Assembly: GCA_016841045.1 (NCBI GenBank) | Contig: JAENZX010000002.1 | Location: forward strand, 18,375 to 50,374 | Source of the DNA: Thermincola ferriacetica | Lineage (GTDB): Bacteria; Bacillota; Thermincolia; Thermincolales; UBA2595 | Direction: 5' to 3' | Length of the DNA: 32,000 nucleotides | In this document: one piece after another, positions 374 to 14,381 of the stretch | Layout: the number at the start of each line of letters is the position of its first letter | Numbering within the stretch: the first letter of the stretch is position 1 | Notes under the pieces: generated by a model | What the model saw: the letters and a program-made list of their open reading frames with translations, nothing else | Databases searched by the model: none | Told to the model about the DNA's origin: nothing | Program-made: the position numbers and the translations under genes

Positions 374-1036
374 ATGAGTTCAACACGCCATGCTTTTGAC
401 AGGGCTCTTGAAGAGCTTCAACAGGAAATTTTGCGTATGGGCAGTCTTGTTGAAACAGTCATATACAATTCTGTTAAATCCCTTGCATCCCAGGATGTTT
501 CCCTTGCCGAAGAGGTAATTAAGGGTGACACGATAATAGATCACATGGAACTTGATATAGAAGATAAATGCCTCAAGCTTATTGCTACTCAGCAGCCCAT
601 AGCAGGGGATCTTAGGAAAATCAGTACTGGTTTTAAAATAATAACAGACCTTGAAAGAATGGCCGACAATTCTGTTGATATCGCCAAGGTTACCAGAAGG
701 CTGGCAGGACAGCCTTTAATTAAACCATTGGTTGACATCCCCAGAATGGCAGCTTTAACCCAGCAAATGGTTAAAGACGGCCTTGACGCATATGTCAGGG
801 GTGATGTTGACTTAGCCCGTACCCTTAATGAAAAAGATGATGAAGTAGATCATATATACGCCCAGGTTTTCAGGGAACTGCTTACTTACATGATGGAAGA
901 TCCCAGAACAATCACTCAGGCCGCACATCTCCTCTTTGTTTGCAGATATATTGAAAGGATTGCTGACCACGCCACCAACATCGGGGAACGTGTGGTGTAT
1001 CTGGTAACAGGGGAGCGGCCGGACTTAAATGACTGA
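374..1036 (+). CDS. phoU: Phosphate uptake regulator PhoU
   Basis: The protein has the two-repeat PhoU architecture (LERMADNSVDIA and IERIADHATNIGE motifs). The track ORF starts at GTG 365, which sits inside the AGGAG at 361-365. ATG 374 has proper 8-nt spacing, so it is preferred. Confidence 0.9.
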   Translation: MSSTRHAFDRALEELQQEILRMGSLVETVIYNSVKSLASQDVSLAEEVIKGDTIIDHMELDIEDKCLKLIATQQPIAGDLRKISTGFKIITDLERMADNSVDIAKVTRRLAGQPLIKPLVDIPRMAALTQQMVKDGLDAYVRGDVDLARTLNEKDDEVDHIYAQVFRELLTYMMEDPRTITQAAHLLFVCRYIERIADHATNIGERVVYLVTGERPDLND

Positions 1037-1068
1037 TCTGTTAATGAAAAATGAAATAGAAATAAAAA

Positions 1069-1102
1069 GTGAGGATGGTACTTTAGCTGTCCTCACTTTT
1101 TT
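1069..1102 (+). terminator. Rho-independent terminator after phoU
   Basis: Stem gtgagga (1069-1075) pairs with tcctcac (1090-1096), followed by a T-run at 1097-1102. Confidence 0.7.
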
Positions 1103-1229
1103 ACGTGCGGCAGGAGAATAATTTAATTGAGTTTATTGAGTTTAATGGGAGTTTCTTAGCAGGATATGCCATATTTGATGTAGAATAAAGATTTTGTTTA
1201 CAGCCTTTAAATACTGGAGGACAGCTCAA

Positions 1230-2207
1230 ATGCAGACTGCAAAAGGCGAAGCAGAAATAAGGGTTAGAGTCAGGCGGAGCCCTCGTCATTTATTGAGGAA
1301 GCTTATTTTGTCGGTGATTGCGGTTTATATTGTAGTTGTCACCTACGGGTTTATTAATGAACTTGTAATTGCCAGTCTTGTTAAGGTTGAACAGGTACAG
1401 GACGGGGTTATTCAGTCTACTGTAACTGCCGAAGGAATTTTAGTTCGAAATGAGGAAACAGTTACATCACCCCATAGTGGAACTATTAGGCGTATTGCTG
1501 CCGAAGGGGAAAGAGTCAGGGTTGGCCAAGTAGTTGCCCAGGTGGCCATCGCATCACTGGACAGTTCTAACGGAGTAACAATGTATAATATAAAAGCTCC
1601 CAGGTCCGGTATAGTCAGCTATCGTTTTGATGGCCTGGAGTCTGTCTATACATATCAGAACCTTAAGGAATTAGATTTAAATAAAGTTGAGAAACTAATA
1701 GCTGAATATTCGGAAATCAAATCTGAGGGGACTGTAGAAGAAGGAAAACCGATGTTCAGGATTATCAATAATCTGGACCCTGTTTATATAATTACAAGAC
1801 TACAAAATGGCCAGACACTGCCGGAAAAGGAATCATTTAAAATTAGCTCCGGGTCTGGTGATAAGCTATTCAAAGCATTTATCACAGAACAAACATTTTT
1901 TAATAAGCCTAACCAAATTCTATTTAAAGTTTCATATTACGATAACTGGCTTATGACCTCACGAAAAATCAAATTTAATATAATAACTGAGCGTTATGAG
2001 GGCCCGGTTATTCCTGTTTCGGCACTTGTCAAAAAAGAAGGGGAAGACGGTATATATACAATCTACAAAGAACGGGTCAAATGGAAGCCTGTAACGGTGG
2101 AAGGAAAATCAGAAGGTAAAGCGGTAATTTCTGGCGTTACTCCAGACGTAAAAGTCATTCTAAGTCCCGAATACGTTAAAGAGGGCGTTCCTTTGAAAAT
2201 AAGATAA
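1230..2207 (+). CDS. Membrane-anchored HlyD/membrane-fusion-like adaptor protein (orphan)
   Basis: An N-terminal basic stretch is followed by one TM helix (LILSVIAVYIVVVTYGF). A barrel-sandwich (lipoyl-like) segment contains GTIRRIAAEGERVRVGQVVAQV and IKAPRSGIV, and the C-terminus is a beta-barrel-like domain. GGAGG at 1216-1220 precedes ATG 1230, so the TTG at 1194 in the track is probably too early. Confidence 0.6.
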   Translation: MQTAKGEAEIRVRVRRSPRHLLRKLILSVIAVYIVVVTYGFINELVIASLVKVEQVQDGVIQSTVTAEGILVRNEETVTSPHSGTIRRIAAEGERVRVGQVVAQVAIASLDSSNGVTMYNIKAPRSGIVSYRFDGLESVYTYQNLKELDLNKVEKLIAEYSEIKSEGTVEEGKPMFRIINNLDPVYIITRLQNGQTLPEKESFKISSGSGDKLFKAFITEQTFFNKPNQILFKVSYYDNWLMTSRKIKFNIITERYEGPVIPVSALVKKEGEDGIYTIYKERVKWKPVTVEGKSEGKAVISGVTPDVKVILSPEYVKEGVPLKIR

Positions 2208-2216
2208 AGGTGGGTC

Positions 2217-2909
2217 TTGGTTTTGAACGACATTATAGATAATATTGGGGAAGTCCGGGAGCGGGTTAGGAAATCGGCAGAAAAGGTTGGCCGTGATCCG
2301 GATGAAATAAAGATAGTTGCAGTTACCAAAACGGTTCCCGTTGAAAAGATAAAATTAGCTGTAGAAAGTGGTTTAACTATTCTTGGGGAGAACAGGGTTC
2401 AGGAACTTCTTGAAAAAGACCCTGCGCTAAGTGGGGTAGAGTGGCATTTAATCGGACACCTTCAGACAAACAAGGTTAAATATATTGTGGACAAGGTTTC
2501 GATGTTACACTCCCTTGATAGCATTGGGCTTGCAGGTGAAATAAGCAAAAGAATGAATACACTCGGCCGTGTTATGGAAGTATTGGTTCAGGTTAATGTG
2601 GCTGGGGAAGAATCCAAGTTTGGGATTAAACCTTCTGAAGCTGTGGGGTTTGTGGATGCTGTACGAAAACTTCCGGGGCTGAAGTTAAAGGGATTGATGA
2701 CTATTGCGCCTATGGTTACCGACCCGGAAGAAACAAGGCCTGTTTTTCGTCAGTTGAAAAATTTAGCCGAAGAGATTAAAACAATGGGCTATCCGGAGGT
2801 GGAAATGTCTCATCTGTCTATGGGAATGTCCAATGATTATAAAGTGGCAGTTGAAGAAGGAGCTACACTTATAAGATTAGGAAGTACTATTTTTGGGTCA
2901 AGAAACTGA
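2217..2909 (+). CDS. yggS: PLP-binding homeostasis protein, YggS/YlmE family
   Basis: The protein is full length (230 aa) with a TIM-barrel alanine-racemase-N-like sequence (VAVTKT, HLIGHLQTNK, SMGMSNDY). It occupies the conserved position upstream of sepF. Confidence 0.9.
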   Translation: MVLNDIIDNIGEVRERVRKSAEKVGRDPDEIKIVAVTKTVPVEKIKLAVESGLTILGENRVQELLEKDPALSGVEWHLIGHLQTNKVKYIVDKVSMLHSLDSIGLAGEISKRMNTLGRVMEVLVQVNVAGEESKFGIKPSEAVGFVDAVRKLPGLKLKGLMTIAPMVTDPEETRPVFRQLKNLAEEIKTMGYPEVEMSHLSMGMSNDYKVAVEEGATLIRLGSTIFGSRN

Positions 2910-2934
2910 TAGGCTGTAGAAGGAGGAAGTTTAA

Positions 2935-3381
2935 GTGAGTAAAATAATGGATAAGGTTCTCGGGTTTATGGGTTTTGAAGAAGAAGAGGTAGAAATCCTT
3001 GATGAAGAAGAAATTGACGTTAATGAAGATGAGGATTTTGGAAAGAGAAAGAAAAGCGGAAATATTTTTAGCCTGCATTCCCAAAAGAATTTGAGGGTTG
3101 TTGTGTGTGAACCAAAAGTATTTGAGGACTGTCAGTCTATTTCAGACAACTTAAAAAACCGCAGGCCGGTAATAGTCAATCTGGAAAACGCCGATAAAGA
3201 ATTGTCAAAACGGGTTATTGATTTTATTTGTGGGGCTACATATGCATTAAGCGGACATACACAAAAAGTTGGCAACAACATCTTCTTGTTTGTACCCAGC
3301 AACATGGACATTGCCAGTGAATTAAAGGATGCTGAAAAAGAGAAAGAAAAAGAAAAAGGACTTTTTACCTGGGTCCGTTAA
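2935..3381 (+). CDS. sepF: Cell division protein SepF
   Basis: It has an N-terminal amphipathic MSKIMDKVLGFMGF, an acidic linker and a DUF552 core (VVVCEPKVFEDCQSISDNLKNRRPVIVNLE...YALSGHTQKVGNNIFLFVPSN). AGGAGGA lies 7 nt upstream of the GTG start. Confidence 0.9.
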   Translation: MSKIMDKVLGFMGFEEEEVEILDEEEIDVNEDEDFGKRKKSGNIFSLHSQKNLRVVVCEPKVFEDCQSISDNLKNRRPVIVNLENADKELSKRVIDFICGATYALSGHTQKVGNNIFLFVPSNMDIASELKDAEKEKEKEKGLFTWVR

Positions 3382-3396
3382 CAGGGGGCTGCTAAG

Positions 3397-4221
3397 ATGC
3401 CGTTAAGCAATAAGATTGTAGGGTTTATAGGTGCGGGAAATATGGCCGAGGCTCTCATCAAGAGTATGATTAGAGGCAAGTTAATTAAACCCTCCAATAT
3501 TTTGGCCAGTGATATTAATACAGAGCGAGGCCATAAACTTGCAAAAACGTATAAGTTTCAGTTTTTAGAGGATAATAAGGAACTAGTCAGCCAGGCCGAT
3601 GTCGTGGTTTATGCGGTTAAACCCTTCATGATGGAGAAGGTACTGGCAGAAGTATTTAATTTTGTTAAACGCCAACAGGTTCATATCTCTATTGCTGCTG
3701 GAATTTCTCTTGAATTTATTGAAATGAACCTTCCAACTGATACTCCTGTCATTCGAGTGATGCCTAATACTCCTTGTCTGGTAGGGGCAGGTGCATCCGC
3801 CTACTCGGTAGGTAAAGCCACTGGACAGGAACAAGAGGAAATAGTAAAAAATATACTGGACTGTACCGGAGTTTCTGTTAAGGTGGAAGAGCATCTTCTT
3901 AATGCGGTTACAGGTCTTTCCGGAAGCGGACCTGCCTATGCTTTTTTGATTATTGAAGCTTTAGCTGATGCCGGGGTTAAGGCAGGATTACAGCGTGATG
4001 TGGCAGTTACTTTAGCTGCTCAGACTCTTTTGGGTTCAGCCAAAATGGTTCTTGATTCTAAAGAACATCCTGCAAAATTAAAGGATATGGTTACAACTCC
4101 ATCAGGTACGACTATAGCCGGTCTTCACGTATTGGAGAATGGCAGACTTCGGGGTGTATTAATTGACGCCGTATCTGCAGCTGCTAAACGTGCTGGGGAA
4201 CTTGGTTCCGGTAAGAAATAA
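3397..4221 (+). CDS. proC: Pyrroline-5-carboxylate reductase
   Basis: It has an N-terminal Rossmann GFIGAGNMAEA and a C-terminal dimerisation-domain motif (LKDMVTTPSGTTIAGL). The length is 274 aa. Confidence 0.92.
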   Translation: MPLSNKIVGFIGAGNMAEALIKSMIRGKLIKPSNILASDINTERGHKLAKTYKFQFLEDNKELVSQADVVVYAVKPFMMEKVLAEVFNFVKRQQVHISIAAGISLEFIEMNLPTDTPVIRVMPNTPCLVGAGASAYSVGKATGQEQEEIVKNILDCTGVSVKVEEHLLNAVTGLSGSGPAYAFLIIEALADAGVKAGLQRDVAVTLAAQTLLGSAKMVLDSKEHPAKLKDMVTTPSGTTIAGLHVLENGRLRGVLIDAVSAAAKRAGELGSGKK

Positions 4222-4233
4222 GGGGGTTTTCTT

Positions 4234-4518
4234 TTGAATATCAGTTTAACTTATATTGTGTGGGTAGCCTTTAAAGCTGTTGAATGGCTTCTTTATGCCC
4301 GCATAATCTTATCCTTTCTTCCTCTTTTTATGAGAATTGACCCATATCACCCCATCATACGGTTTGTGTATGAAACAACTGAGCCGTTGATGGCTCCATT
4401 TAGAAGAATTTTGCCTCCTATGGGTGGTTTTGACTTTTCAATTATAATCGTATTTTTTGTTCTCCAGATAGTCAGGTCAGTGGTTATACAGCTATTAGTC
4501 TCGGCAGGACTTGGTTAG
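4234..4518 (+). CDS. YggT family membrane protein
   Basis: This is a 94-aa protein with two TM helices. It has the YggT-like pattern (ILSFLP...PYHPIIRFVYETTEPLMAPFRRILPPMGGFDFS) and sits in the conserved ylm cluster position. Confidence 0.85.
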   Translation: MNISLTYIVWVAFKAVEWLLYARIILSFLPLFMRIDPYHPIIRFVYETTEPLMAPFRRILPPMGGFDFSIIIVFFVLQIVRSVVIQLLVSAGLG

Positions 4519-4546
4519 AAAATGGTCTATTAACGGAGTGAGCTGT

Positions 4547-5332
4547 TTGAATAAAAAGGAGATACTTGACCGGGCAGCAAGTTCGGAAGACAGAATAGTT
4601 TTAGCCCGGGTTATTGATAAAATTGAATCAGTGGTCAAGACTCATAGTATTGAAGTGACTGAGTTTTTTGACCCTTATCAGCAGAGAATTGTTTCTCCGG
4701 TGCTGTCAAGAGTACCGGATATTTCTTTTATTTGGACCGGCGGGTTTGACAGTGCGGAGCGGAAGCGGCTTATATTATTTCCTGATTACCTTGAGCCAGA
4801 GGAGATTGATCCAGAGATAAAATACCTGGAGATTACAGGAAACCTCAAATTTCAGAATCTTTCTCACCGGGATTTTCTCGGTTCTCTAATGGGTCTGGGT
4901 ATAAAAAGGGATAAGCTGGGAGATATAATTGTCACATCCGAAGGGTGCCAGGTTGTGGCTGACCACTATATAGCGGACTATATAGAAAGAAATTTGACGA
5001 AGGTGCACAGGGTAGGTGTGAAAATCAGAGAAATAGCGGCACACAGTCTGCGGCTGCCCGAGGAAGAGGTCAAAGAAGTTTTTGCGACTGTTGCTTCGAT
5101 GCGGCTGGATTCAGTCGCTGCTGCAGGCTTCGGGACGTCACGGACTAAAATGGCTGATGAGATTTATGCAGAAAAGGTCAAGGTCAACTGGGTTGTAGTC
5201 AATGACTGTTCTCATGCTGTAAAAGAGGGCGATATTATATCTATTCGGGGGCGGGGAAGACTGGAAATTGATACTGTTAAAGGAGAAACCAAAAAAGGCA
5301 GGGTAGCTTTAAACTTAAAACGTTTTAAGTAG
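4547..5332 (+). CDS. ylmH: YlmH-like RNA-binding protein (S4 domain)
   Basis: A C-terminal S4-like segment (MRLDSVAAAGFGTSRTKMADEIYAEKVKVNW) and cluster synteny support the call. The start is uncertain: the track uses TTG 4511, which overlaps the yggT stop, whereas TTG 4547 follows GGAG at about 4534. Confidence 0.8.
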   Translation: MNKKEILDRAASSEDRIVLARVIDKIESVVKTHSIEVTEFFDPYQQRIVSPVLSRVPDISFIWTGGFDSAERKRLILFPDYLEPEEIDPEIKYLEITGNLKFQNLSHRDFLGSLMGLGIKRDKLGDIIVTSEGCQVVADHYIADYIERNLTKVHRVGVKIREIAAHSLRLPEEEVKEVFATVASMRLDSVAAAGFGTSRTKMADEIYAEKVKVNWVVVNDCSHAVKEGDIISIRGRGRLEIDTVKGETKKGRVALNLKRFK

Positions 5333-5425
5333 TTTAAGGAATTTTCCGGGGGCCAAAGGATTTTTTTTCCTTAAGGTCGAATTGTTTCGAAAAAGGTGCT
5401 TAGACTTTATTAGGAGGTGCTCCAA

Positions 5426-5929
5426 TTGTCACTGACCCCTCTTGACATTCACAACAAAGAGTTTCGGAAGGCTTTCCGGGGCTATGAAGAACAGGAAGTA
5501 GATGAATTCCTTGATTTGGTTGTCCAGGAATATGAAAGGTTATATAAAGAAAATATCGATTTAAAAGAGGCCCTGGCTGCAAAGGACAGTAATATTGGCC
5601 AGTACAAAGATCTGGAAGACACACTGAAAAAGACTTTGGTGGTTGCACAGAAAACCGCTGATGACATGAAGGAAAGCGCTGTCCGGGAAGCTGAGGTAAT
5701 TATTGGAGAAGCTCGTTTAAAAGCAGAACAAATTATCCAGGATGCCGGGGAAAAGGTGAGAACTGCTCTCTTGGATTATGAGAATATTCGCAAACAATCG
5801 CAGGAGTTTAAGGTTAGGTTCAGGGCCCTCTTAAAGAGCCAGTTGGACCTGATAGAAGAATCTGTTGATGAAAGCACCCTTGCTGAGAAACAAGTTGCAG
5901 CAGGCCAGGACTTTGTAATACAGGACTAA
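5426..5929 (+). CDS. divIVA: Cell division/polarity protein DivIVA
   Basis: The N-terminus from TTG 5426 (M)SLTPLDIHNKEFRKAFRGYEEQEVDEFLD is the canonical DivIVA lipid-binding domain, followed by coiled coil. AGGAGG at 5412-5417 lies 8 nt upstream. The track start at GTG 5417 overlaps the RBS. Confidence 0.9.
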   Translation: MSLTPLDIHNKEFRKAFRGYEEQEVDEFLDLVVQEYERLYKENIDLKEALAAKDSNIGQYKDLEDTLKKTLVVAQKTADDMKESAVREAEVIIGEARLKAEQIIQDAGEKVRTALLDYENIRKQSQEFKVRFRALLKSQLDLIEESVDESTLAEKQVAAGQDFVIQD

Positions 5930-5941
5930 GGGGGGCGTTCT

Positions 5942-6235
5942 TTGGATATCCAGGAACATCCTGATGGTGTGGTAATGAAAATAAAAGTGCAGCCTAGGGC
6001 GTCAAGAAACAAAATTGCCGGAACAATAGGTGATGCCCTAAAAGTAATGCTGACAGCTCCGCCAGTAGATGGTGAAGCCAATGCCGCCTGCATAGAGTTT
6101 TTCTCCGACCTGTTGGGTATCCCCAAAAGAGACATCGAAATCCTAACCGGCCACACCGGCAGGAACAAAACCATAAAACTTTACGGCCTAACCAAGTCAA
6201 AACTAACTGAGCAACTCCCTCAAATATTTTCTTGA
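5942..6235 (+). CDS. DUF167 (YggU/UPF0235) family protein
   Basis: It is 97 aa with KVQPRASRNKI...LKVMLTAPPVDGEANAACIEFFSDLLGIPKRDIEILTGHTGRNKTIKL, which is typical of DUF167. An AAGGGGGG RBS is present. Confidence 0.85.
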   Translation: MDIQEHPDGVVMKIKVQPRASRNKIAGTIGDALKVMLTAPPVDGEANAACIEFFSDLLGIPKRDIEILTGHTGRNKTIKLYGLTKSKLTEQLPQIFS

Positions 6236-6374
6236 GACTGAAATTAGGTTAAATTGGTTAATTTATAAAAGGCAGGGAACGTTCATCTCACTCGTTGAGC
6301 AATTACCTCAACTTCTTCCGTGGGACGGTGCTGCATTGGTTCTGGATAATGTTAAGTGCTTTATTAGTAAGTAC

Positions 6375-6686
6375 GGGTTACTCCGTCCATAGTTAGGGTA
6401 TGACTGTTTACGGAGGTTTTCATTTGGGTTACCATCGTCTGTCAACTTTCCGAATCAATTTTCAAATCCGCCGGGCGGAGGCAAGCTGCGGAGCTGTTGC
6501 CGCTTTAGCGGCTTACAGATTCGGCGTCCCCCTTGCGGGGAGACGCCGAAGCCGCCCAGCGCCATGGACGGCGCATGGGCGGGTACCCAAGGATTTGAAA
6601 ATTTATTCGGTCTAGTTGACCAGATGGTAACCCATGAAAATCGGAGTAAACAGTCATACCCTTGGCCAGAGTTTCGGAGTAACCCC
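6375..6686 (+). ncRNA. Unclassified large hairpin-like structured element (candidate ncRNA; strand not resolved)
   Basis: Perfect helices are separated by discrete internal loops.
- Paired segments: 6375-6385/6675-6685, 6396-6411/6646-6661 (16 bp), 6417-6423/6634-6640, 6426-6436/6623-6633 (11 bp), 6441-6446/6615-6620, 6450-6455/6605-6610 and 6457-6469/6591-6603 (13 bp).
- The GC-rich tip (6470-6590) carries local hairpins at 6480-6501, 6520-6550 and 6553-6581.
- No RBS-supported ORF is present.
- No motif of RNase P, SRP, tmRNA, 6S or a riboswitch class was recognised. Confidence 0.35.
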
Positions 6687-6739
6687 GGCCTGGATTAAGA
6701 CCCGAATTATTATCCAAACACAACTCACTTCACGGAAAG

Positions 6740-6768
6740 TTGACGAGCGAAGCCCTTTTGGATATAAT
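6740..6768 (+). promoter_or_regulatory. SigA-type promoter of the ileS T-box leader
   Basis: TTGACG (6740-6745), an exact 17-nt spacer, then TATAAT (6763-6768), located just upstream of T-box stem I. Confidence 0.7.
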
Positions 6769-6779
6769 TAAAAAATAGG

Positions 6780-7050
6780 TCAACTGGATAGTGCCACTAT
6801 GTGCTATGAAGGGGAGAGTAAGTATTGGGGAGGCTCCAGCGAACCCGGGGCAGTGTAAGCCGGGTGCTTGAAGCAATACCGAAAATCACCCCCGAGCTTT
6901 ACAGCTGAAACTTTAGTAAGCTGTAACGGCAGCAGCCGTTATCTGCAACCGTAAGTGCCGTGCAAATACATTGGTTCTACCGTGTTATTTGCCGGAATTT
7001 GGGTGGTACCGCGGGAATTATTCCCGTCCCTTGTGGGACGGGATTTTTTA
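6780..7050 (+). promoter_or_regulatory. T-box riboswitch leader, isoleucine specifier (AUC)
   Basis: Stem I carries GAGAGTAAG (GA/K-turn region) and an AGCGA bulge. The specifier loop is GAAA-ATC-A (about 6881-6889). The T-box sequence AATTTGGGTGGTACCGCG lies at 6996-7014. The terminator stem tcccgtccc/gggacggga (7022-7043) is followed by a T-run ending at 7049. Confidence 0.9.
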
Positions 7051-7092
7051 TTTTATGGCTTTTTTGCCGGTTTGAGGAGGAACAAATTTATC

Positions 7093-9897
7093 ATGGAAGA
7101 CAACAACAAGATTGATTACAGCAAAACCCTTAACCTGCCGCAGACAGATTTTCCGATGAGGGGAAACCTTCCTGAGAGGGAACCTGAAACGTTGAAATTC
7201 TGGGAAGAACAAAACATTTATCAAAAGGTCCAGAAACAGAATGAAGGTAAACCTAAATTCATTTTGCATGACGGACCTCCCTACGCCAATGGAGATATAC
7301 ACCTGGGTCATACCTTAAATAAGGTTTTAAAAGATATTATTGTTAAATTTAAATCTATGGACGGTTATGATGCTCCTTATGTTCCTGGCTGGGACACCCA
7401 TGGTCTGCCTATTGAACAGCAGGCTATTAAAGCCTTGGGTATTAACAGGCATGAAGTAAGCGCTGTTGATTTCCGTAAGAAATGTAAAGAATACGCCCTG
7501 AAGTACGTGGACATCCAAAGGGAAGAATTTAAGAGGCTTGGCGTAAGAGGAGACTGGGATAATCCGTATTTGACACTTCAGCCTTACTTTGAGGCTAAAC
7601 AGATAGAAGTATTTGGTGAAATGGCCAAAAGAGGCTATATTTATAAAGGGCTGAAACCTGTTTACTGGTGCGCATCATGTGAGACAGCGCTGGCTGAGGC
7701 AGAGGTTGAGTATGGTGACAAGAAATCTGCTTCAATATTTGTTAAGTTCAAAGTAAGTGAAGGCAAAGGTGTACTTCCCGAGGATAATACTTATGTGGTA
7801 ATCTGGACTACCACTCCCTGGACACTGCCGGCTAATGTAGCTATAAGCCTTCATCCCGAATATGAATATTCACTGATTGAAGCAAATGGTGAAAAGCTGG
7901 TTGTGGCGTCCGGGCTTTTGGAGGCATTTACCAAACAAGTTGGATTAGATAAGTTCGAAGTTATTAAGACCTTAACAGGTACCGAGCTAGAAGGCATCCA
8001 GTGTCAGCATCCGTTTATGGAACGCCAATCAGTACTTATTTTGGGAGAACATGTAACTTTGGAACAGGGCACAGGATGTGTCCATACCGCTCCTGGCCAT
8101 GGTGTAGAGGACTTTGAAGTAGGTAAAAAATATAATTTGGATGTAGTAACACCTCTTGATAACAGAGGGATTTTTACAGCTGAAGGTGGTTTTCTACAGG
8201 GGCAGACAACTGACCAGGCTAATAAGAGTGTAGTAGTCAAACTTGACGAATTGGGTGCTCTGATGAAAATGGGCTGGATTCAGCACCAGTATCCCCACTG
8301 CTGGAGGTGCAAAAGCCCTATTCTGTTTAGAGCCACTGAACAGTGGTTTGCATCAATAGATGGTTTCCGTAAGCAGGCCCTGGAAGAAATCGACAGGGTT
8401 GAATGGGTTCCCACCTGGGGCCGCGATCGTATTTATAACATGATCGCAGACCGGGGAGACTGGTGTATTTCCAGGCAGAGAACCTGGGGTGTACCGATTC
8501 CCATTTTCTATTGTGAAGACTGCGGTAAAGAGCTGATTAATGATGAAACTATCAATCACGTTAAGGAGCTTGTAAGAGAACACGGATCTGATGTTTGGTT
8601 CGCAAGGGAGGCCAAAGACCTGCTTCCTGAGGGAATGTCCTGTCCGGCTTGCGGAAGCGGTAAGTTCCGCAAGGAAACGGACATTATGGATGTCTGGTTT
8701 GATTCAGGTTCAAGCCATTGGGCAGTACTTACTCAAAAAGAGTACTGGCCCGACCTGTCCTGGCCTGCCGACATTTACCTTGAAGGAAGCGACCAGCACA
8801 GGGGTTGGTTCAACTCTTCACTTTGTACTTCGGTTGCAACAAAGGGAAAAGCTCCATACAAAACTGTGCTTACCCACGGATTCCTGGTTGATGAGCAGGG
8901 GCGTAAAATGTCCAAGTCTATGGGTAATGTTACCGACCCGCTGGATGTAATCAAGCAGATGGGAGCAGATATACTCAGGCTTTGGGTTTCTTCCGTTGAT
9001 TATAAATCGGATGTGGCGGTATCTCCGGGGATATTAAAGCAGATGTCAGAGGCGTATCGTAAGATAAGAAATACTGCGAGATACCTTTTGGGTAACCTTT
9101 ATGACTACAATCCAGAAAAAGACCAGGTAGAGTATGAGAAGCTGCAGGAGATTGATAAGTGGGCCCTGTTAAAACTTAATAAGCTCGTTAAGAGGGTTAA
9201 GGAAGCTTACAGTAACTATGAGTTTCATGTTGTTTACCACTCAGTCCATAACTTCTGTACAGTGGACATGAGCGCTTTTTACCTGGATATCATCAAAGAC
9301 AGGCTTTATACTTCTCTGCCTGCATCCTTTGAGAGGCGGGCGGCCCAAACCGTTATGTACGAAATTATCACAGCCCTGGTTAAGCTTTTGGCGCCGGTGT
9401 TGGCATTTACCTCAGAAGAAATCTGGCGGTATATTCCTAAAGTGGCAGGTGATGATACTAGTGTTCAGCTTTGTACAATGCCCGAGGTCAGGGAAGATTA
9501 TATCAATGAGGAATTAGAAGTTAAATGGGGCAGGGTCATTAAGGTTCGTGACGAAATTGCCAGAGCTCTGGAGGCTGCACGCCGTGAAAAGGTCATTGGC
9601 CATTCACTGGATGCCCATGTTACTGTTTACGCTGACGGTGAGCTGTTGAGTTTCCTCAGGCCGTTTGAAGGAGAACTGGCTACTCTTCTTATCGTTTCTA
9701 AAGCTGAACTTGCTGAAGCGGAAAAAGCACCTGAAGCGGCCTTTACATCCGAAGAAGTCCCCGGGTTAAAGGTTGGGGTTTGCCAGGCTGCAGGGGTTAA
9801 GTGTGAGAGATGCTGGACATACAGCGAGGAAGTTGGTCGTGACAGTGAACACCCGGCTGTTTGTGGAAGGTGTCTGGAGGTTGTCAGAAACAGTTAG
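7093..9897 (+). CDS. ileS: Isoleucine--tRNA ligase (type 1, C-terminal zinc-binding)
   Basis: The protein has HIGH ([11 protein letters not shown]), KMSKS, a CP1 editing region and a C-terminal CERCW...CGRC. GAGGAGG precedes ATG 7093. The track ORF start at 6955 runs through the T-box terminator and is rejected. Confidence 0.97.
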
Positions 9898-10022
9898 AAA
9901 TCTTATGTGTAAGCAGGAATATTGGTGTAATTGTCGAAATACAATTTCAATAAGATTTTTAACGAATTATCAACAAAATTGACTAATTTTTAGAAAATAT
10001 AAAATTAGGGGAGGGTATTATA

Positions 10023-10223
10023 ATGTCGGATTTCAAATGTACTAACTGCGAGCTTTGCGGCAAAGAAGTAGATGCCAAACTCATGTGTTCCATTATCTTA
10101 AATGACGAAGAAGAAAAAGAAAAAGCATGCTGGTGTGTATGCAAAGACTGTATGCAGAACTTCAATGAAAATATCAAAAACTACTACAAAGAAATAATCA
10201 ATGATAAACCCAACAAAAAGTAA
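10023..10223 (+). CDS. Small Cys-rich hypothetical protein (66 aa, putative zinc-binding)
   Basis: A strong RBS (GGGGAGGG) lies 8 nt upstream of the ATG, and a terminator follows immediately. There are eight Cys residues arranged CxxCxxC ... C ... CxCxCxxC, an acidic centre and a Lys-rich tail. Confidence 0.6.
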   Translation: MSDFKCTNCELCGKEVDAKLMCSIILNDEEEKEKACWCVCKDCMQNFNENIKNYYKEIINDKPNKK

Positions 10224-10249
10224 AAAAGCGCTTCTGCGCTTTTTTTTTG
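10223..10249. terminator. Bidirectional rho-independent terminator shared by convergent genes
   Basis: In aaaaaagcgcttctgcgcttttttttt, the stem agcgc/gcgct is flanked by an A-run and a T-run. It lies between the convergent genes 10023-10223 (+) and 10263-10550 (-). Confidence 0.75.
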
Positions 10250-10262
10250 GGCAATTTTTACA

Positions 10263-10550
10263 TCAGGAATTAGAAACAGGCTTACGCCTTCTCTTCAATC
10301 TTTTTTCCTGGTATTCCATAAGGTTATTCAACCTTTTCTCCCTCAGTTTGCGGGTCATGTAACCGCCGATCTGTCCAGTTTCCGCCGCACTTAAACCGGC
10401 CCAGCCCACTTCTTTTACCTTAGGCCAGAGTCCCAGTTCTTTGGCAACCTCTATTTTAAATTTGTCAATTACCGTTGGCGGCTTTTTCTTTTTTTTCTTC
10501 TTGCCCGTTTTAGCTTTTGATACCCTTTTTTTCGTCGTTGTTGTGTCCAA
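10263..10550 (-). CDS. Alpha/beta-type small acid-soluble spore protein (SASP) family member with Lys-rich tails
   Basis: The core KIEVAKELGL...GLSAAETGQIGGYMTRKL fits the two conserved alpha/beta SASP helix motifs. The TTG start lies 8 nt after AAGGAGG. A forespore-type -10-like CATACTT (complement of 10569-10575) lies upstream. Confidence 0.7.
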   Translation of the reverse strand: MDTTTTKKRVSKAKTGKKKKKKKPPTVIDKFKIEVAKELGLWPKVKEVGWAGLSAAETGQIGGYMTRKLREKRLNNLMEYQEKRLKRRRKPVSNS

Positions 10551-10685
10551 ATCATCTACCTCCTTTGGAAAGTATGACCAGACCTTAATAATTTAATTAC
10601 TTTACGGGCTGACTTTTTTTTGAATTTGTATTATACTTATATTCAGTATAGTAAACGAATAAGGTTTTTCTTTTGGAGGTTATGT

Positions 10686-11366
10686 ATGAGAGTATTAGTT
10701 AAGGATGTTATGTCTAAAGGGGTTGTCAAGCTTAAAAAAACCCAAACGATACATGAAGTCAACCAACTCTTTCTTGATCGTGTCATAGATGGTGCTCCAG
10801 TGGTGGATGACATAGGCAGGGTTATTGGGGTTTTTACCAAGACCCACCTTATGCGTGCCTTTGGAAAACCATTAGATACGCCCATCGAACGGCTGATGAA
10901 TAAAAATGTTATGACTATCAGTGAATCAATGCCTGTTGAGGAGGCTATGAATATACCTGTCGGCCGGCTTCCGGTTGTAGACAAAAACGGGAAAATGGTG
11001 GGCTGGTTAACACGGACAGACTTGGCAAAGGCATTTGTCGACCATTACAAAAGGTCTATAGAAGGACTGCTCATGGTTGTTGATTCTACAGCTCACGGAC
11101 TAATGGCGATAGATGCAGGGGGTAAAATTACTGTTTTCAATAAAACAGCTGAACAGTTGTGGGATATTGACGCGGAAGAGATAGTTGGAATGCCTGTAAG
11201 TCAGATTTTTCCTGTCATGAAGATGGATTCTATATTATTAAGCGGTGATGCGGCTAGTTACAGGCTGCAGGTTGATGAAAATATTTATCAGGTTGATGCG
11301 ACACCCATGAAGGAAGACGGCAGAATCGTGGGTGGGGTGGCTCAGTTTTATAGATTACAAGACTAA
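10686..11366 (+). CDS. CBS-pair plus PAS domain protein (signalling, function unknown)
   Basis: It has two CBS repeats (VKDVMSKGVV...VIDGAPVVDD.GRVIGVFT and LMNKNVMTISE...LPVVDKNGKMVGWLTRTDL). A PAS-like C-terminus follows (AHGLMAIDAGGKITVFNKTAEQLW). GGAGG at 10675-10679 precedes ATG 10686, and the upstream extension in the track is unlikely. Confidence 0.75.
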   Translation: MRVLVKDVMSKGVVKLKKTQTIHEVNQLFLDRVIDGAPVVDDIGRVIGVFTKTHLMRAFGKPLDTPIERLMNKNVMTISESMPVEEAMNIPVGRLPVVDKNGKMVGWLTRTDLAKAFVDHYKRSIEGLLMVVDSTAHGLMAIDAGGKITVFNKTAEQLWDIDAEEIVGMPVSQIFPVMKMDSILLSGDAASYRLQVDENIYQVDATPMKEDGRIVGGVAQFYRLQD

Positions 11367-11470: not shown

Positions 11471-12661
11471 ATGTTTGCTAAGATACTGGCAGAAGCAGCA
11501 AAGCTGCAGCCGGGGCTGGTAAAATTAAGAAGAACGATTCATAGCAACCCTGAACTTGGCTTTCAGGAGTGGGAAACATCAAAATTGGTTCAGGAAGAGC
11601 TAGCAGCCCTTAACCTTAAGGTAACCGCGGGAATTGCCAAAACAGGTGTATGTGCTTTAATAGACAAAGGCTTTGAGAAAACTATCGCACTGAGGGCAGA
11701 TATGGATGCTCTGCCCGTTGAAGAGCAGAGTGATGCAGTATATAAGTCCTGCAAAAAGGGAGTAATGCATGCATGCGGACATGATGCCCATGTTGCAATG
11801 CTGCTTGGGGCAGCCAAAATTATCACACTTCTTAAGGATGACCTTAAGGTAAATGTTAAGTTTATATTCCAGCCGTCTGAAGAATCAAAGGGCGGGGCTC
11901 TGCCAATGATCCAGGAGGGGATATTGGAGAACCCAAAAGTTGACGGCATATTCGGGCTTCATGTAAATCCCTATATACCGACAGGCTTCTTAGGTTATAA
12001 AGAAGGGGTTTTGATGGCTGCTGCAGACCGTATTAGTATTGAAATAAGGGGCCACGGGGGGCATGGTGCAGCACCCCATCAGTCGGTTGACCCCGTTGTT
12101 ATTGCGGCTCACGTTATTCTGGCTCTTCAAAACATAGTGAGCAGACAGATGGACCCGGTGGAGCCCGTAGTTGTTTCGGTGTGCTCAATAAATGGGGGCA
12201 GTTCTCATAATGTAATTCCTGATAAGGTGGAATTAGTTGGAACGGTTAGAACCATTGACCCCAATATACAAAAAACGATGCCTGATAAAATAAGGAATAT
12301 AGTAAAGGGGATAACTTCTTCTTTTGGAGCTGACTTCAGCTTTGATTATCAATATGGGTATCCTGCACTTCATAATAACAAACAAATGGTTGAGGTCGTG
12401 CGGCAGGCTGGATATGAAGTCTTTGGCCGTCAGCGCACCTTAAGTGTGGCAGCTCCATCTATGGGAGCGGAGGATTTTGCGTGTTTTAGCTCAAAGGTTC
12501 CCGGGGCATACTTCTTCTTGGGAGCCAGACCGCAAAAGGGTGAGGTGTATCCGTGGCATAATCCCAGGTTTGACATAGATGAATCAGTATTATCACAAGG
12601 AGCAAGCCTGATAACCGCATGTGTTTTCAAGTCCCAGGAAATTCTTTTGAAAGAGGGTTAA
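11471..12661 (+). CDS. M20D-family amidohydrolase (N-acyl-amino acid / hippurate hydrolase-like)
   Basis: It carries IHSNPELGFQE, the metal-ligand motifs HACGHDAH and QPSEE, and a dimerisation-domain region. Either ATG 11471 or TTG 11450 could be the start. Confidence 0.85.
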   Translation: MFAKILAEAAKLQPGLVKLRRTIHSNPELGFQEWETSKLVQEELAALNLKVTAGIAKTGVCALIDKGFEKTIALRADMDALPVEEQSDAVYKSCKKGVMHACGHDAHVAMLLGAAKIITLLKDDLKVNVKFIFQPSEESKGGALPMIQEGILENPKVDGIFGLHVNPYIPTGFLGYKEGVLMAAADRISIEIRGHGGHGAAPHQSVDPVVIAAHVILALQNIVSRQMDPVEPVVVSVCSINGGSSHNVIPDKVELVGTVRTIDPNIQKTMPDKIRNIVKGITSSFGADFSFDYQYGYPALHNNKQMVEVVRQAGYEVFGRQRTLSVAAPSMGAEDFACFSSKVPGAYFFLGARPQKGEVYPWHNPRFDIDESVLSQGASLITACVFKSQEILLKEG

Positions 12662-13464: not shown

Positions 13465-13760
13465 AAAGATTAACCGCAGAGGGTGAAATGATTCATTTGA
13501 GGCAGAAGAAGAGGACGCAAAGTACGCAGAGAGTCACAATTCTCCAAACGTACGGTATTCTTCCAAACTATAATTAAATTATTGTTGTAAATGAATAAAA
13601 AAATTTATCACCTAATCCTAAAAATGTTGTTTGATCAAAAAAGTAATACTTCTACATGGATAGAAAAAATTAAGTTGGCGTCAGCAGTGTCTCTCTGCGA
13701 CCTTTGCGTCCTCAGACCGTTGAGTAGTGCCCGTGAGCACCTCTGCGTTAAACCATCTTT
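13465..13760. mobile_element. MITE-like non-coding element with ~75-bp terminal inverted repeats (CGCAGAG-repeat family)
   Basis: The left end aaagattaaccgcagagg...gaggacgcaaagtacgcagagagtcac (13465-13537) is mirrored by gtgtctctctgcgacctttgcgtcctc...cctctgcgttaaaccatcttt (13687-13760). The interior is AT-rich, and the only ORF (13591-13788) lacks an RBS. Confidence 0.55.
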
Positions 13761-13844
13761 CCAATTGAAGAAGATTGCTTCTACATAACGGTAATTAATT
13801 TACAAATGTTAAAAAGTGTATTAGAGTTACCATGGGGCAACGTT

Positions 13845-13873
13845 TTGTTTTTTAATCTTTTTATGGTTAGAAT
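13845..13873 (+). promoter_or_regulatory. Candidate SigA promoter for the GxxExxY gene
   Basis: TTGTTT (13845-13850), a 17-nt spacer, then TAGAAT (13868-13873). Confidence 0.35.
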
Positions 13874-13918
13874 TAATAAACTTATAAAAAAGTATTCGTT
13901 TAGAAGGTGATTACTATA

Positions 13919-14314
13919 ATGGGTGGTATTGCAGCTAGTGAAATAAACGGTCTTTCGGATAAAATTATCGGTGCAGCAATTGAAGTTCATAAAGCAATGG
14001 GGGCCGGTTTATTTGAGAGTGTTTATGAGGAATGTCTCTGCTATGAATTTAACTTACGAAATATAAGTTTTGAACAGCAAAAAGTCATCCCTATAATTTA
14101 CAAAGGTAAAACTTTTGACCATGGTTTTCGAGCTGATTTGTTAGTTGAAGACACAATAATAGTGGAACTAAAATCAGTCAGTTCTGTCCTGCCAGTTCAT
14201 GAAGCACAGCTGTTGAACTATTTAAAGTTGTCTAATTTGAAGTTAGGATTGTTAATTAACTTTAATGTACCAATTTTGAAAAATGGGATAAAAAGAATAG
14301 TTAACGATCTCTAG
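13919..14314 (+). CDS. GxxExxY protein (PD-(D/E)XK nuclease superfamily, PDDEXK_3-like)
   Basis: It has KIIGAAIEVHKAMGAGLFESVYEECLCYEF with the literal G-x-x-E-x-x-Y motif, then D...VELK and HEAQLLNYLK. Either ATG 13919 or GTG 13907 could be the start. Confidence 0.85.
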   Translation: MGGIAASEINGLSDKIIGAAIEVHKAMGAGLFESVYEECLCYEFNLRNISFEQQKVIPIIYKGKTFDHGFRADLLVEDTIIVELKSVSSVLPVHEAQLLNYLKLSNLKLGLLINFNVPILKNGIKRIVNDL

Positions 14315-14334
14315 TATATGGGTTATACGGTTTC

Positions 14335-14381
14335 AAAAGATTGAGAACACATTATGTTAGGATGACTGTGACTCTCTGCGT
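14335..14381. repeat. Degenerate short copy of the CGCAGAG-repeat family
   Basis: aaaagattgagaacac (14335-14350) and gtgactctctgcgt (14368-14381) match the two TIR sub-motifs of the 13465-13760 element. Confidence 0.4.

Follow-up and report, generated by a model that had tools for sequence, protein, structure and literature searches.

A lineage-specific palindromic insertion upstream of ileS in Thermincola ferriacetica and a covarying two-hairpin unit that it shares with phage contigs

The 32,000-nt stretch of Thermincola ferriacetica DNA analyzed here (contig JAENZX010000002.1 of assembly GCA_016841045.1, positions 18,375 to 50,374; hereafter, the window) contains a segment of ~500 nt, at positions 6236-6735, that separates the last gene of the ylm-divIVA cluster from the promoter of the ileS T-box leader and is occupied largely by one long hairpin. 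An earlier note on this DNA had proposed a candidate large structured RNA of ~300 nt at the locus. The segment is, we find, an insertion without a counterpart in related genomes and a mosaic, with pieces that are found apart from one another at other loci; in its GC-rich tip lies a two-hairpin unit of ~57 nt whose helices covary among phages and Firmicutes. We read the segment as mobile DNA that is palindromic, nested, and non-autonomous and that serves no dedicated function at this site, and we would put the probability of this reading at roughly 0.55. On the best reading of the data, such mobile DNA constitutes a new sequence family.

Results

The segment is absent from related DUF167-ileS junctions

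The left neighbor of the segment is the DUF167/YggU gene (5942-6235, + strand; Pfam DUF167, 3e-26), which closes the ylm-divIVA cluster in a gene order that is the same in relatives. On the right, the ileS leader promoter (TTGACG-17-TATAAT, 6740-6768, + strand; -35 box TTGACG at 6740-6745) is conserved in relatives in an alignment made by eye and marks the right boundary of the insertion. It is followed by the ileS T-box leader (6797-7034, + strand; Rfam RF00230, 125.2 bits), and the DUF167-ileS spacer of the window amounts to 849 nt. IleS homologues put the source among Phosphitispora, HGW-Firmicutes-14/-8, and Thermincola relatives, with a best full-length identity of 84%.

We compared the syntenic locus in nine relatives with IleS 79-84% identical, and none of the nine junctions has a counterpart of 6236-6735, which makes these ~500 nt lineage specific. 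In L006, L007, L008, and L012/L013, the DUF167 stop overlaps the sequence AAGTTGACT-17-TATAAT or precedes it by no more than ~30 nt, and the spacer (347-429 nt) is essentially the T-box leader alone. A PNP_UDP_1-family gene, its 3' end overlapping the promoter, occupies the site in L004, L005, and L018/L019, and a 232-aa open reading frame (ORF) with no Pfam hit occupies it in L014-L017. The junction is therefore a variable spot, with four states among related genomes when the window foldback is included. A decayed PNP_UDP_1 pseudogene in the window segment was ruled out, as tblastn and blastn find nothing there. P0024, whose IleS is 90% identical, has a contig that begins inside ileS, and the closest ProC homologue (83%) is on a 1.5-kb contig, so that the site is not reached in either. 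These comparisons lend no support to an RNA gene conserved at this position.

The hairpin folds far beyond chance, equally on both strands, and is layered

Minimum free energy (MFE) folding and an inverted-repeat scan both place the stalk at 6375-6686 (~310 nt), with weaker outward pairing that reaches 6308-6744; the scan recovered the series of helices that the earlier note had listed. Folded as RNA, 6300-6750 has an MFE of -222.9 kcal/mol on the + strand, against -138.6 +/- 6.0 for 100 dinucleotide shuffles (z = -14.0), and of -214.5 kcal/mol on the - strand (z = -13.3). The fold is far beyond chance, yet it is symmetric between strands, and G-U pairs in the stalk (seven on +, nine on -) show no wobble bias.

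The hairpin is best described as a set of layers: an outer weak pairing, an 11-bp basal helix, an arm module that we call A, an AT-rich inner stalk, and a GC-rich tip that holds the 57-nt unit and a private hairpin. In the MFE structure, the outer weak pairing joins 6308-6351, for which no homologue was found, to 6709-6744, and it includes the inverted repeat I6 (6336-6350/6709-6723, 80%). Its 3' partner runs into the -35 box of the ileS leader, just as the earlier note had described. The basal helix is a perfect 11-bp inverted repeat (I9, 6375-6385/6675-6685). Module A lies inside it, its 5' part at 6395-6436 (GTATGACTGTTTAC-GGAGG-TTTTCAT-TGGGTTACCATC) and its 3' part at 6623-6662 (GATGGTAACCCA-TGAAAA-TCGGA-GTAAACAGTCATACCCT; repeats I1 and I7). 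The scan gives inverted repeats at 6395-6423/6634-6662 (29 nt, 86%), 6425-6436/6623-6634 (12 bp, perfect), and 6450-6469/6591-6610 (20 nt, 95%). An internal loop of GGAGG opposite TCGGA is present in the stalk, as are mismatches gathered into discrete loops, both as previously noted. The AT-rich inner stalk pairs 6441-6469 with 6591-6620 (I2 and, on the 5' side, I5) and is specific to the window on both sides. Altogether, the arms (6375-6469 and 6591-6686) measure about 95 nt each and the whole element ~310-440 nt, a small size with inverted ends.

The apical domain (6470-6590) stands out by composition and fold, being 62-66% GC between flanks of about 0.40-0.45 in a window of 43.6% GC overall. 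It contains three hairpins, and those proposed at 6499-6512, 6520-6550, and 6553-6581 all appear in the fold. The last of them (CCGCCCAGCGCC-ATGGAC-GGCGCATGGGCGG) is specific to the window, with no homologue found. The tip also holds the core unit (6486-6541, + strand), which reads CTGCGGAGCTGTT-GCCGC-TTTA-GCGGC-TTACAGATTCGGCGT-CCCCC-TTGC-GGGGA.

Module A also builds an unrelated foldback

The most symmetric arm-segment pattern, used on the JGI metagenomes, identified a foldback of 270-370 nt (L009, z = -10.1) that lies 3' of minD-minE-rodA genes and of the terminator of that cluster. The window arms are matched over ~40 nt by both arms of L009, in inverted order and about 230 nt apart (L009:2380-2650). 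By BLAST, 6398-6427 is 87% identical to L009 2388-2417 and 6613-6659 is 79% identical to 2604-2648. L009 keeps the internal loop in the form G(G/A)AGG/(U/C)CGGA, and the helix GGGTTACC/GGTAACCC of the window has become GGGCGGC/GCCGCCC. With only these two sequences, the stalk offers one compensated helix and one wobble favoring each strand. The GC-rich center and the rest of L009 differ from the window, and covariance model R1, discussed below for the core unit, has no match there. Similarity between the flanks of the two foldbacks outside module A seemed visible by eye; it did not rise above shuffled controls.

The edges of module A fall at internal loops of the window stalk (6386-6394/6663-6674 and 6437-6440/6621-6622), which provides an explanation for clustered mismatches that does not involve RNA. 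The earlier note had taken such clustering as the mark of selection at the RNA level. That argument holds in part, in that the helices of the core do covary, but at least two of the loops sit at module edges.

Module A is otherwise rare. A strict arm pattern had 0 matches in 185,579 species-representative genomes, and the module A pattern was not found in IMG/VR. A looser pattern matched once in the same 185,579 genomes, in a cyanobacterium (L011), by chance and with no foldback. Matches L001 and L002, from a 17-mer scan of IMG/VR, and the metagenome match L010 were also judged to be chance. Finally, neither PLSDB plasmids nor GenBank phages gave a blastn match to 6280-6755.

The core unit recurs in other Firmicute foldbacks

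By BLAST, window positions 6471-6547 are 86% identical to L007:14372-14449 on the opposite strand. This copy is at the center of a ~270-nt foldback (L007b, L007:14283-14555; z = -11.1) whose arms are unrelated to those of the window and which lies between two convergent terminators, 8 kb from the empty ileS site. A third copy, at L014:9786-9853(+), is part of a ~180-nt foldback (9783-9962) that follows the T-box terminator and precedes the ileS ribosome-binding site (RBS). This foldback is missing from L015-L017, which come from other samples, have the same IleS, and apart from it are 100% identical to L014 across the 260 nt aligned; its presence or absence is a polymorphism among near-identical strains. 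With covariance model R1, the window scores 74.9 bits (E = 2e-14, over 6480-6547), L007b 63.5 bits (L007:14372-14439(-)), and L014 56.5 bits, and no other match turned up in the 221 kb of loci retrieved. The core is in sense orientation in two of the three Firmicute copies (window and L014) and between convergent genes in the other.

Two of the three core-bearing foldbacks are in the ileS upstream region, that of the window 5' of the promoter and that of L014 3' of the T-box terminator. This clustering may represent a target preference, a function, or simply the sampling of ileS-centered loci. It was also observed that the ileS T-box leader of L014-L017 is cut short, lacking the Stem I region and scoring 39 bits where the gathering score is 93, and that the right end of the L014 foldback supplies TTGAAC-17 nt-TATAAT just 5' of the ileS RBS, a possible bypass promoter that the insertion would have created.

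The core unit is widespread in phage contigs

A two-hairpin pattern run on IMG/VR returned L022 and L023, and a refined pattern returned 28 loci against ~0.04 expected by chance on our own estimate. A 60-nt consensus matches no plasmids and, in GenBank, 10 gut records of "Bacteriophage sp." without annotation, MT835700 among them. Two further viral matches (L020 and L021) lacked the remaining motif and were taken as chance or as terminator pairs.

The discrete unit is CTGCGCAGCCGTTGGCAGCTCTGCTGCCTTACGGATGCGGCGTCCCCCTTGCGGGGA, 57 nt long. A single locus in a group of related phages has one copy (L025 and others), two copies (L043, with 58-nt spacing), or three (L029, with an exact 57-nt period). 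L047 has three dispersed copies (132-195, 10347-10410, and 11914-11977). On this 12-kb, 67%-GC contig, the copies share ~40 nt extra on each side (..TGCGTCTGTAGCGGCGNTCA, the unit, GTGANCGCC.TGTAC..), so that the repeated block there exceeds the 57-nt unit. In L030 (IMG/VR 3300029686_000018), an uninterrupted polyvalent-protein ORF of 3,284 codons (927-10781; LPD3, LPD23, and ART-PolyVal) contains the unit (5918-5978), antisense and in frame, just past the ART domain, where it encodes ...PQGARRIRKTAEPSTAAQ....

To orient the unit, we used gene picking based on GC content at third codon positions (GC3) together with PHROG and Pfam matches (portal, terminase, replication initiator, polyvalent protein, and Tail_P2_I). 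Relative to co-directional flanking genes, the core is antisense in 8, sense in 3, and between convergent genes in 1 of 12 phage lineages. The phage contigs with the unit are 58-67% GC and the window is 43.6%, which makes the 66%-GC tip compositionally foreign in its Firmicute host. The unit is thus common to high-GC phages, from gut and environmental samples, and to low-GC Peptococcaceae-like chromosomes.

The core helices covary

We tested covariation in a 23-sequence alignment (A5) on which the two-hairpin structure of 19 pairs was imposed, using 500 column shuffles as controls; the search pattern had fixed part of the 3' half, which inflates conservation but not covariation. In the alignment, 95.4% of cells pair, compared with 86.7 +/- 0.8 in the shuffles, and double changes are found in 10 of the 19 pairs, compared with 3.6 +/- 1.2; none of the 500 shuffles reaches 10. 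When the 3' partners were slid by 1-3 columns, pairing fell to 33-48% and double changes to 0-5.

The lower stem, 9 bp long with a conserved G-A mismatch, reads CGCAGCCGT/ACGGATGCG in most phages, CGTGGTTGT/ACAACCACG in L023, and CGGAGCTGT/ACAGATTCG in the window; a U/UU internal loop is conserved too. The upper stem, of 5-6 bp and with a U-rich loop, covaries through GGCAGC/GCTGCC, GGCGGC/GCCGCC, GACGGC/GCCGTC, GGGGC/GCCCC, GCCGC/GCGGC, and AGCGC/GCGCT. The second hairpin is CCCC-(C)UUGC-GGGG. About 20 cells of the core are G-U; all of them lie on the strand corresponding to + in the window and would be A-C on the other, which favors a single-stranded function of the former. A universal closing stem around the core was rejected, as only 5 of 23 flank pairs had z < -2 (mean z, -0.9); such a stem is seen around the unit in L007b, L032, L040, and L047, and most lineages are without one.

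No known RNA, gene, or expression signal was detected in the element

At the gathering thresholds of Rfam 15, the element is unmatched and the sole hit in the window is the T-box, which bears out the previous view of the hairpin as unclassified. The families covered include 6S, RNase P, SRP, tmRNA, OLE, GOLLD, ROOL, HEARO, raiA, riboswitches, small ribozymes, and Intron_gpII. With 6200-6800 scanned at E <= 10, the best match had 22.6 bits (threshold 40, E 0.47) and the remainder was noise. The phage copies of the core likewise had no Rfam match at threshold, and noise alone at E <= 10. A literature search with sequence strings returned only unrelated CRISPR repeats and primers.

A tRNA/tmRNA scan of the element was empty, its two internal ORFs have no Pfam domain and no homologues, and the six-frame translation of 6300-6750 matched nothing at E <= 10 among 5.8 billion proteins. 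Between 6236 and 6796, no sigma-70 promoter or + strand intrinsic terminator belonging to the element was detected besides the ileS leader promoter. No U-tract is seen after the stalk, whose 3' arm is followed by CCGGCCTGGATTAAG; the stalk is thus not an intrinsic terminator.

Other repeats in the window and its relatives

Further foldbacks of 150-250 nt were observed between genes of the relatives (L012:20206-20420, L014:372-614, and L014:21462-21613). They are unrelated in sequence and have AT-rich arms and small GC-rich tips, and two of them lie between convergent genes; long palindromes seem to be common in this clade. Elsewhere in the window, inverted repeats with a CGCAGAGAGTCAC-type motif (13511-13537/13687-13713, 89%; 13524-13561/14344-14381, 79%) bracket an ORF for a PD-(D/E)XK protein (PDDEXK_3, GxxExxY-type; 13907-14314; Pfam, 4e-44), and 13511-14381 looks like a separate small selfish cassette.

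Discussion

A probable mosaic of palindromic insertions

In the reading that we favor, the element would hold at least three nested layers, namely an outer basal helix, module A, which also builds the unrelated L009 foldback, and a foreign GC-rich tip with one copy of the core. The 57-nt unit itself would spread independently, given its presence in other Firmicute foldbacks and, in variable copy number, in high-GC phage contigs. The layers may have come in one by one, each inserting into an existing hairpin, or recombining with it, at the tip or center, and such layer-by-layer arrival would leave internal loops at the seams. Hairpins would be kept because the mobilizing machinery reads folded single-stranded DNA, as in systems of the repetitive extragenic palindrome (REP)/REP-associated tyrosine transposase (RAYT) type or the IS200/IS605 type. 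The window element is probably transcribed only passively, by read-through from the ylm/divIVA operon. Insertion at this site, mosaic make-up, dispersal of the modules, and covariation of the core are observed; how the layers were transposed and in what order they became nested is inferred.

It is also important to point out the observations that weigh against this interpretation. The available empty sites are too diverged to place junctions, so a target-site duplication is not definable, and the 27 nt to the right of the L014 insert also differ from L015-L017, making this not a clean insertion and recombinational allele replacement possible. The rarity of module A is odd for an active transposable element of the miniature inverted-repeat type (MITE). 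Ends of a partner insertion sequence did not emerge either, the arm motif being absent from the representative genomes and IMG/VR, although no transposase search was made. Only a single copy is seen within the 32 kb of the source genome. The covariation of the core, with its conserved loops and G-A mismatch, is a signal expected of a functional RNA too, and the restriction of the G-U cells to one strand points the same way. The position of two of three foldbacks near ileS could hint at function, though the sampling was itself ileS centered. The earlier note had held that many near-identical copies, dispersed in the genome and with target-site duplications, would indicate a foldback MITE; what we see resembles this in spirit, with dispersed modules and a presence/absence polymorphism, but not in its strict form.

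Alternative explanations

The main alternative is a structured noncoding RNA, in which the 57-nt core would be the functional part and the long stalk a variable closing stem, acting in cis or as a small RNA from the + strand and derived from a phage or otherwise mobile. The pairing and double changes in the core, the conserved U-rich loop, CUUGC, and G-A mismatch, and the wobbles confined to the forward strand are what such an RNA would produce. In addition, the core is sense to the flanking genes in the window and L014, four loci have closing stems, and the absence from Rfam means that the RNA would be new. However, the core is inconsistent in orientation, running antisense in 8 of 12 phage lineages to genes that are validated or GC3-supported, it is found in frame within a 3,284-codon ORF, and it varies in tandem copy number; these three features and the foreign composition suit selfish DNA handled as a folded single strand better than a cis-acting mRNA element, although a small independent RNA would be compatible with each of them. 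Most lineages lack the closing stem, L009 has the stalk module without the core, and the window shows no promoter or terminator of its own. The stalk has no strand asymmetry, and syntenic loci do without the element. These last points, and the separate occurrence of the mosaic pieces, are also where the original proposal of an RNA gene fails. We therefore regard the structured RNA as unlikely, though deserving of serious consideration. A broader possibility, that the unit belongs to an undescribed class of structured nucleic-acid element, be it RNA or folded single-stranded DNA, we hold tentatively and with a little less doubt. If true, the 300-nt hairpin would be either an extended closing stem or the result of serial insertion of elements that target hairpin tips; palindrome building of this Russian-doll kind would, to our knowledge, be new for bacteria.

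Two local explanations appear much less probable. A replication error by fold-back or template switching could have inverted promoter-proximal sequence around a small GC-rich insert, leaving a young and immobile stalk. Within the inner stalk, GTCAACTTTCCG (6441-6452) repeats exactly, in inverted form, CGGAAAGTTGAC of the native ileS -35 region (6733-6744) and matches this region better than its own stalk partner, and part of the stalk may accordingly be a local inverted duplication. The motif AGTTGAC/GTCAACT occurs four times in the region (6441-6452, 6614-6620, 6738-6744, and 6779-6785), one copy being the ileS -35 box and another lying inverted just 3' of the -10 box (GGTCAACTGG), where relatives do not have it. 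The near-perfect arms suggest a recent origin, and there is one copy in the window. Against this, ~40 nt of each arm are homologous to both arms of L009, at an unrelated locus in an unrelated organism, where the internal loop is kept and one helix is compensatorily changed; only the innermost 30 nt per arm could be local, and the core is clearly imported. The account thus seems improbable for the hairpin as a whole. We consider it slightly more improbable still that the hairpin is a cis element for its neighbors, whether a read-through barrier, an RNase III-type processing site that insulates the T-box leader, or a modulator of the ileS promoter by pairing with its -35 region. The hairpin does sit between the end of an operon and the ileS promoter, with no intrinsic terminator after DUF167, its outer pairing overlaps the -35 box, and a second core-bearing foldback is placed in the L014 ileS leader, with a promoter-like TTGAAC-17-TATAAT at its right end and a degenerate T-box beside it. 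But the stalk lacks a U-tract and so is no intrinsic terminator, relatives manage with a promoter that overlaps or abuts the DUF167 stop, related elements sit at unrelated loci (L009 and L007b), and the association with ileS may reflect how loci were sampled.

Relation to known repeat families

By comparison, the palindromic element appears to work most like bacterial MITE/foldback repeats and the pneumococcal BOX elements, although membership in any known system is not established. Like MITEs and foldbacks such as bcr1 of Bacillus cereus and the Correia elements of Neisseria (PMC10969869, PMC3184786), it is short, noncoding, and intergenic, has inverted arms that fold into long DNA or RNA hairpins, and is patchy among close relatives; MITEs are also often passively cotranscribed with neighboring genes. 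It differs in that its arms, of ~95 nt, are paired along their full length, whereas MITEs have short terminal repeats, and in being a nested mosaic with a foreign GC-rich core. The BOX/RUP/SPRITE repeats of pneumococci, with a modular boxA-boxB-boxC build and a variable number of modules (PMC3049150), are likewise noncoding intergenic mosaics with strong predicted structure in a Firmicute. Their sequence is unrelated, however, and BOX modules are arranged linearly and occur in high copy within one genome, whereas those of the window are nested around the center of a palindrome known from one copy in 32 kb.

REP and REPIN elements mobilized by RAYT transposases (PMC3116915, PMC3337134) resemble the 57-nt unit as small, GC-rich, imperfect hairpins whose structure is kept by compensatory change, which form longer hairpins as inverted doublets, are dispersed between genes, and are thought to move as folded single-stranded DNA. 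The unit, by contrast, has two different hairpins instead of one palindrome and turns up in phage contigs as well as within an ORF, whereas REPINs are mostly proteobacterial and vertically inherited. Its consensus has no GTAG/GTGG 5' tetranucleotide and no GTAG or CTAC, and no RAYT gene was identified, though no search for one was made. The core may share the 11-mer GGATGCGGCGT with the Y-type REP of Escherichia coli. The Rickettsia palindromic elements (mentioned in PMC1166351, PMC1458961) are small palindromic selfish DNA that can lie in frame within coding genes, much as the unit (19 codons) does in the L030 polyvalent-protein ORF; their sequence, host, and size (100-150 bp) are different, and the window copy is intergenic.

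There is also a superficial likeness to domains V-VI of group II introns, in a first hairpin of ~36 nt whose lower stem has AGCCGU...ACGG and whose 3' strand has a bulge of 2 nt, and in the bulged A on the 3' strand of the second hairpin of the window. This candidate was rejected, as no Rfam Intron_gpII or D1-D4 match appears even at E <= 10. Furthermore, a G-A mismatch takes the place of the triad G-U wobble, a 5' bulge is present in addition, a GNRA loop is lacking on that strand, and tandem 57-nt copies are incompatible with the 3' end of an intron.

Taken together, for purposes of annotation, the locus should be recorded as a lineage-specific palindromic insertion and not as a candidate large noncoding RNA gene, and it cautions that loop-interrupted helices, which are taken as a signature of selection on RNA, can be mimicked by repeat modules nested in a mosaic. 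The core is worth following in its own right, being discrete, covarying, outside Rfam, and present in dozens of phage contigs and in Firmicute chromosomes of very different composition. Should a mobilizing enzyme or an RNA function be found for it, it would count as a new element, small and mobile or structured, connecting phages with their hosts.

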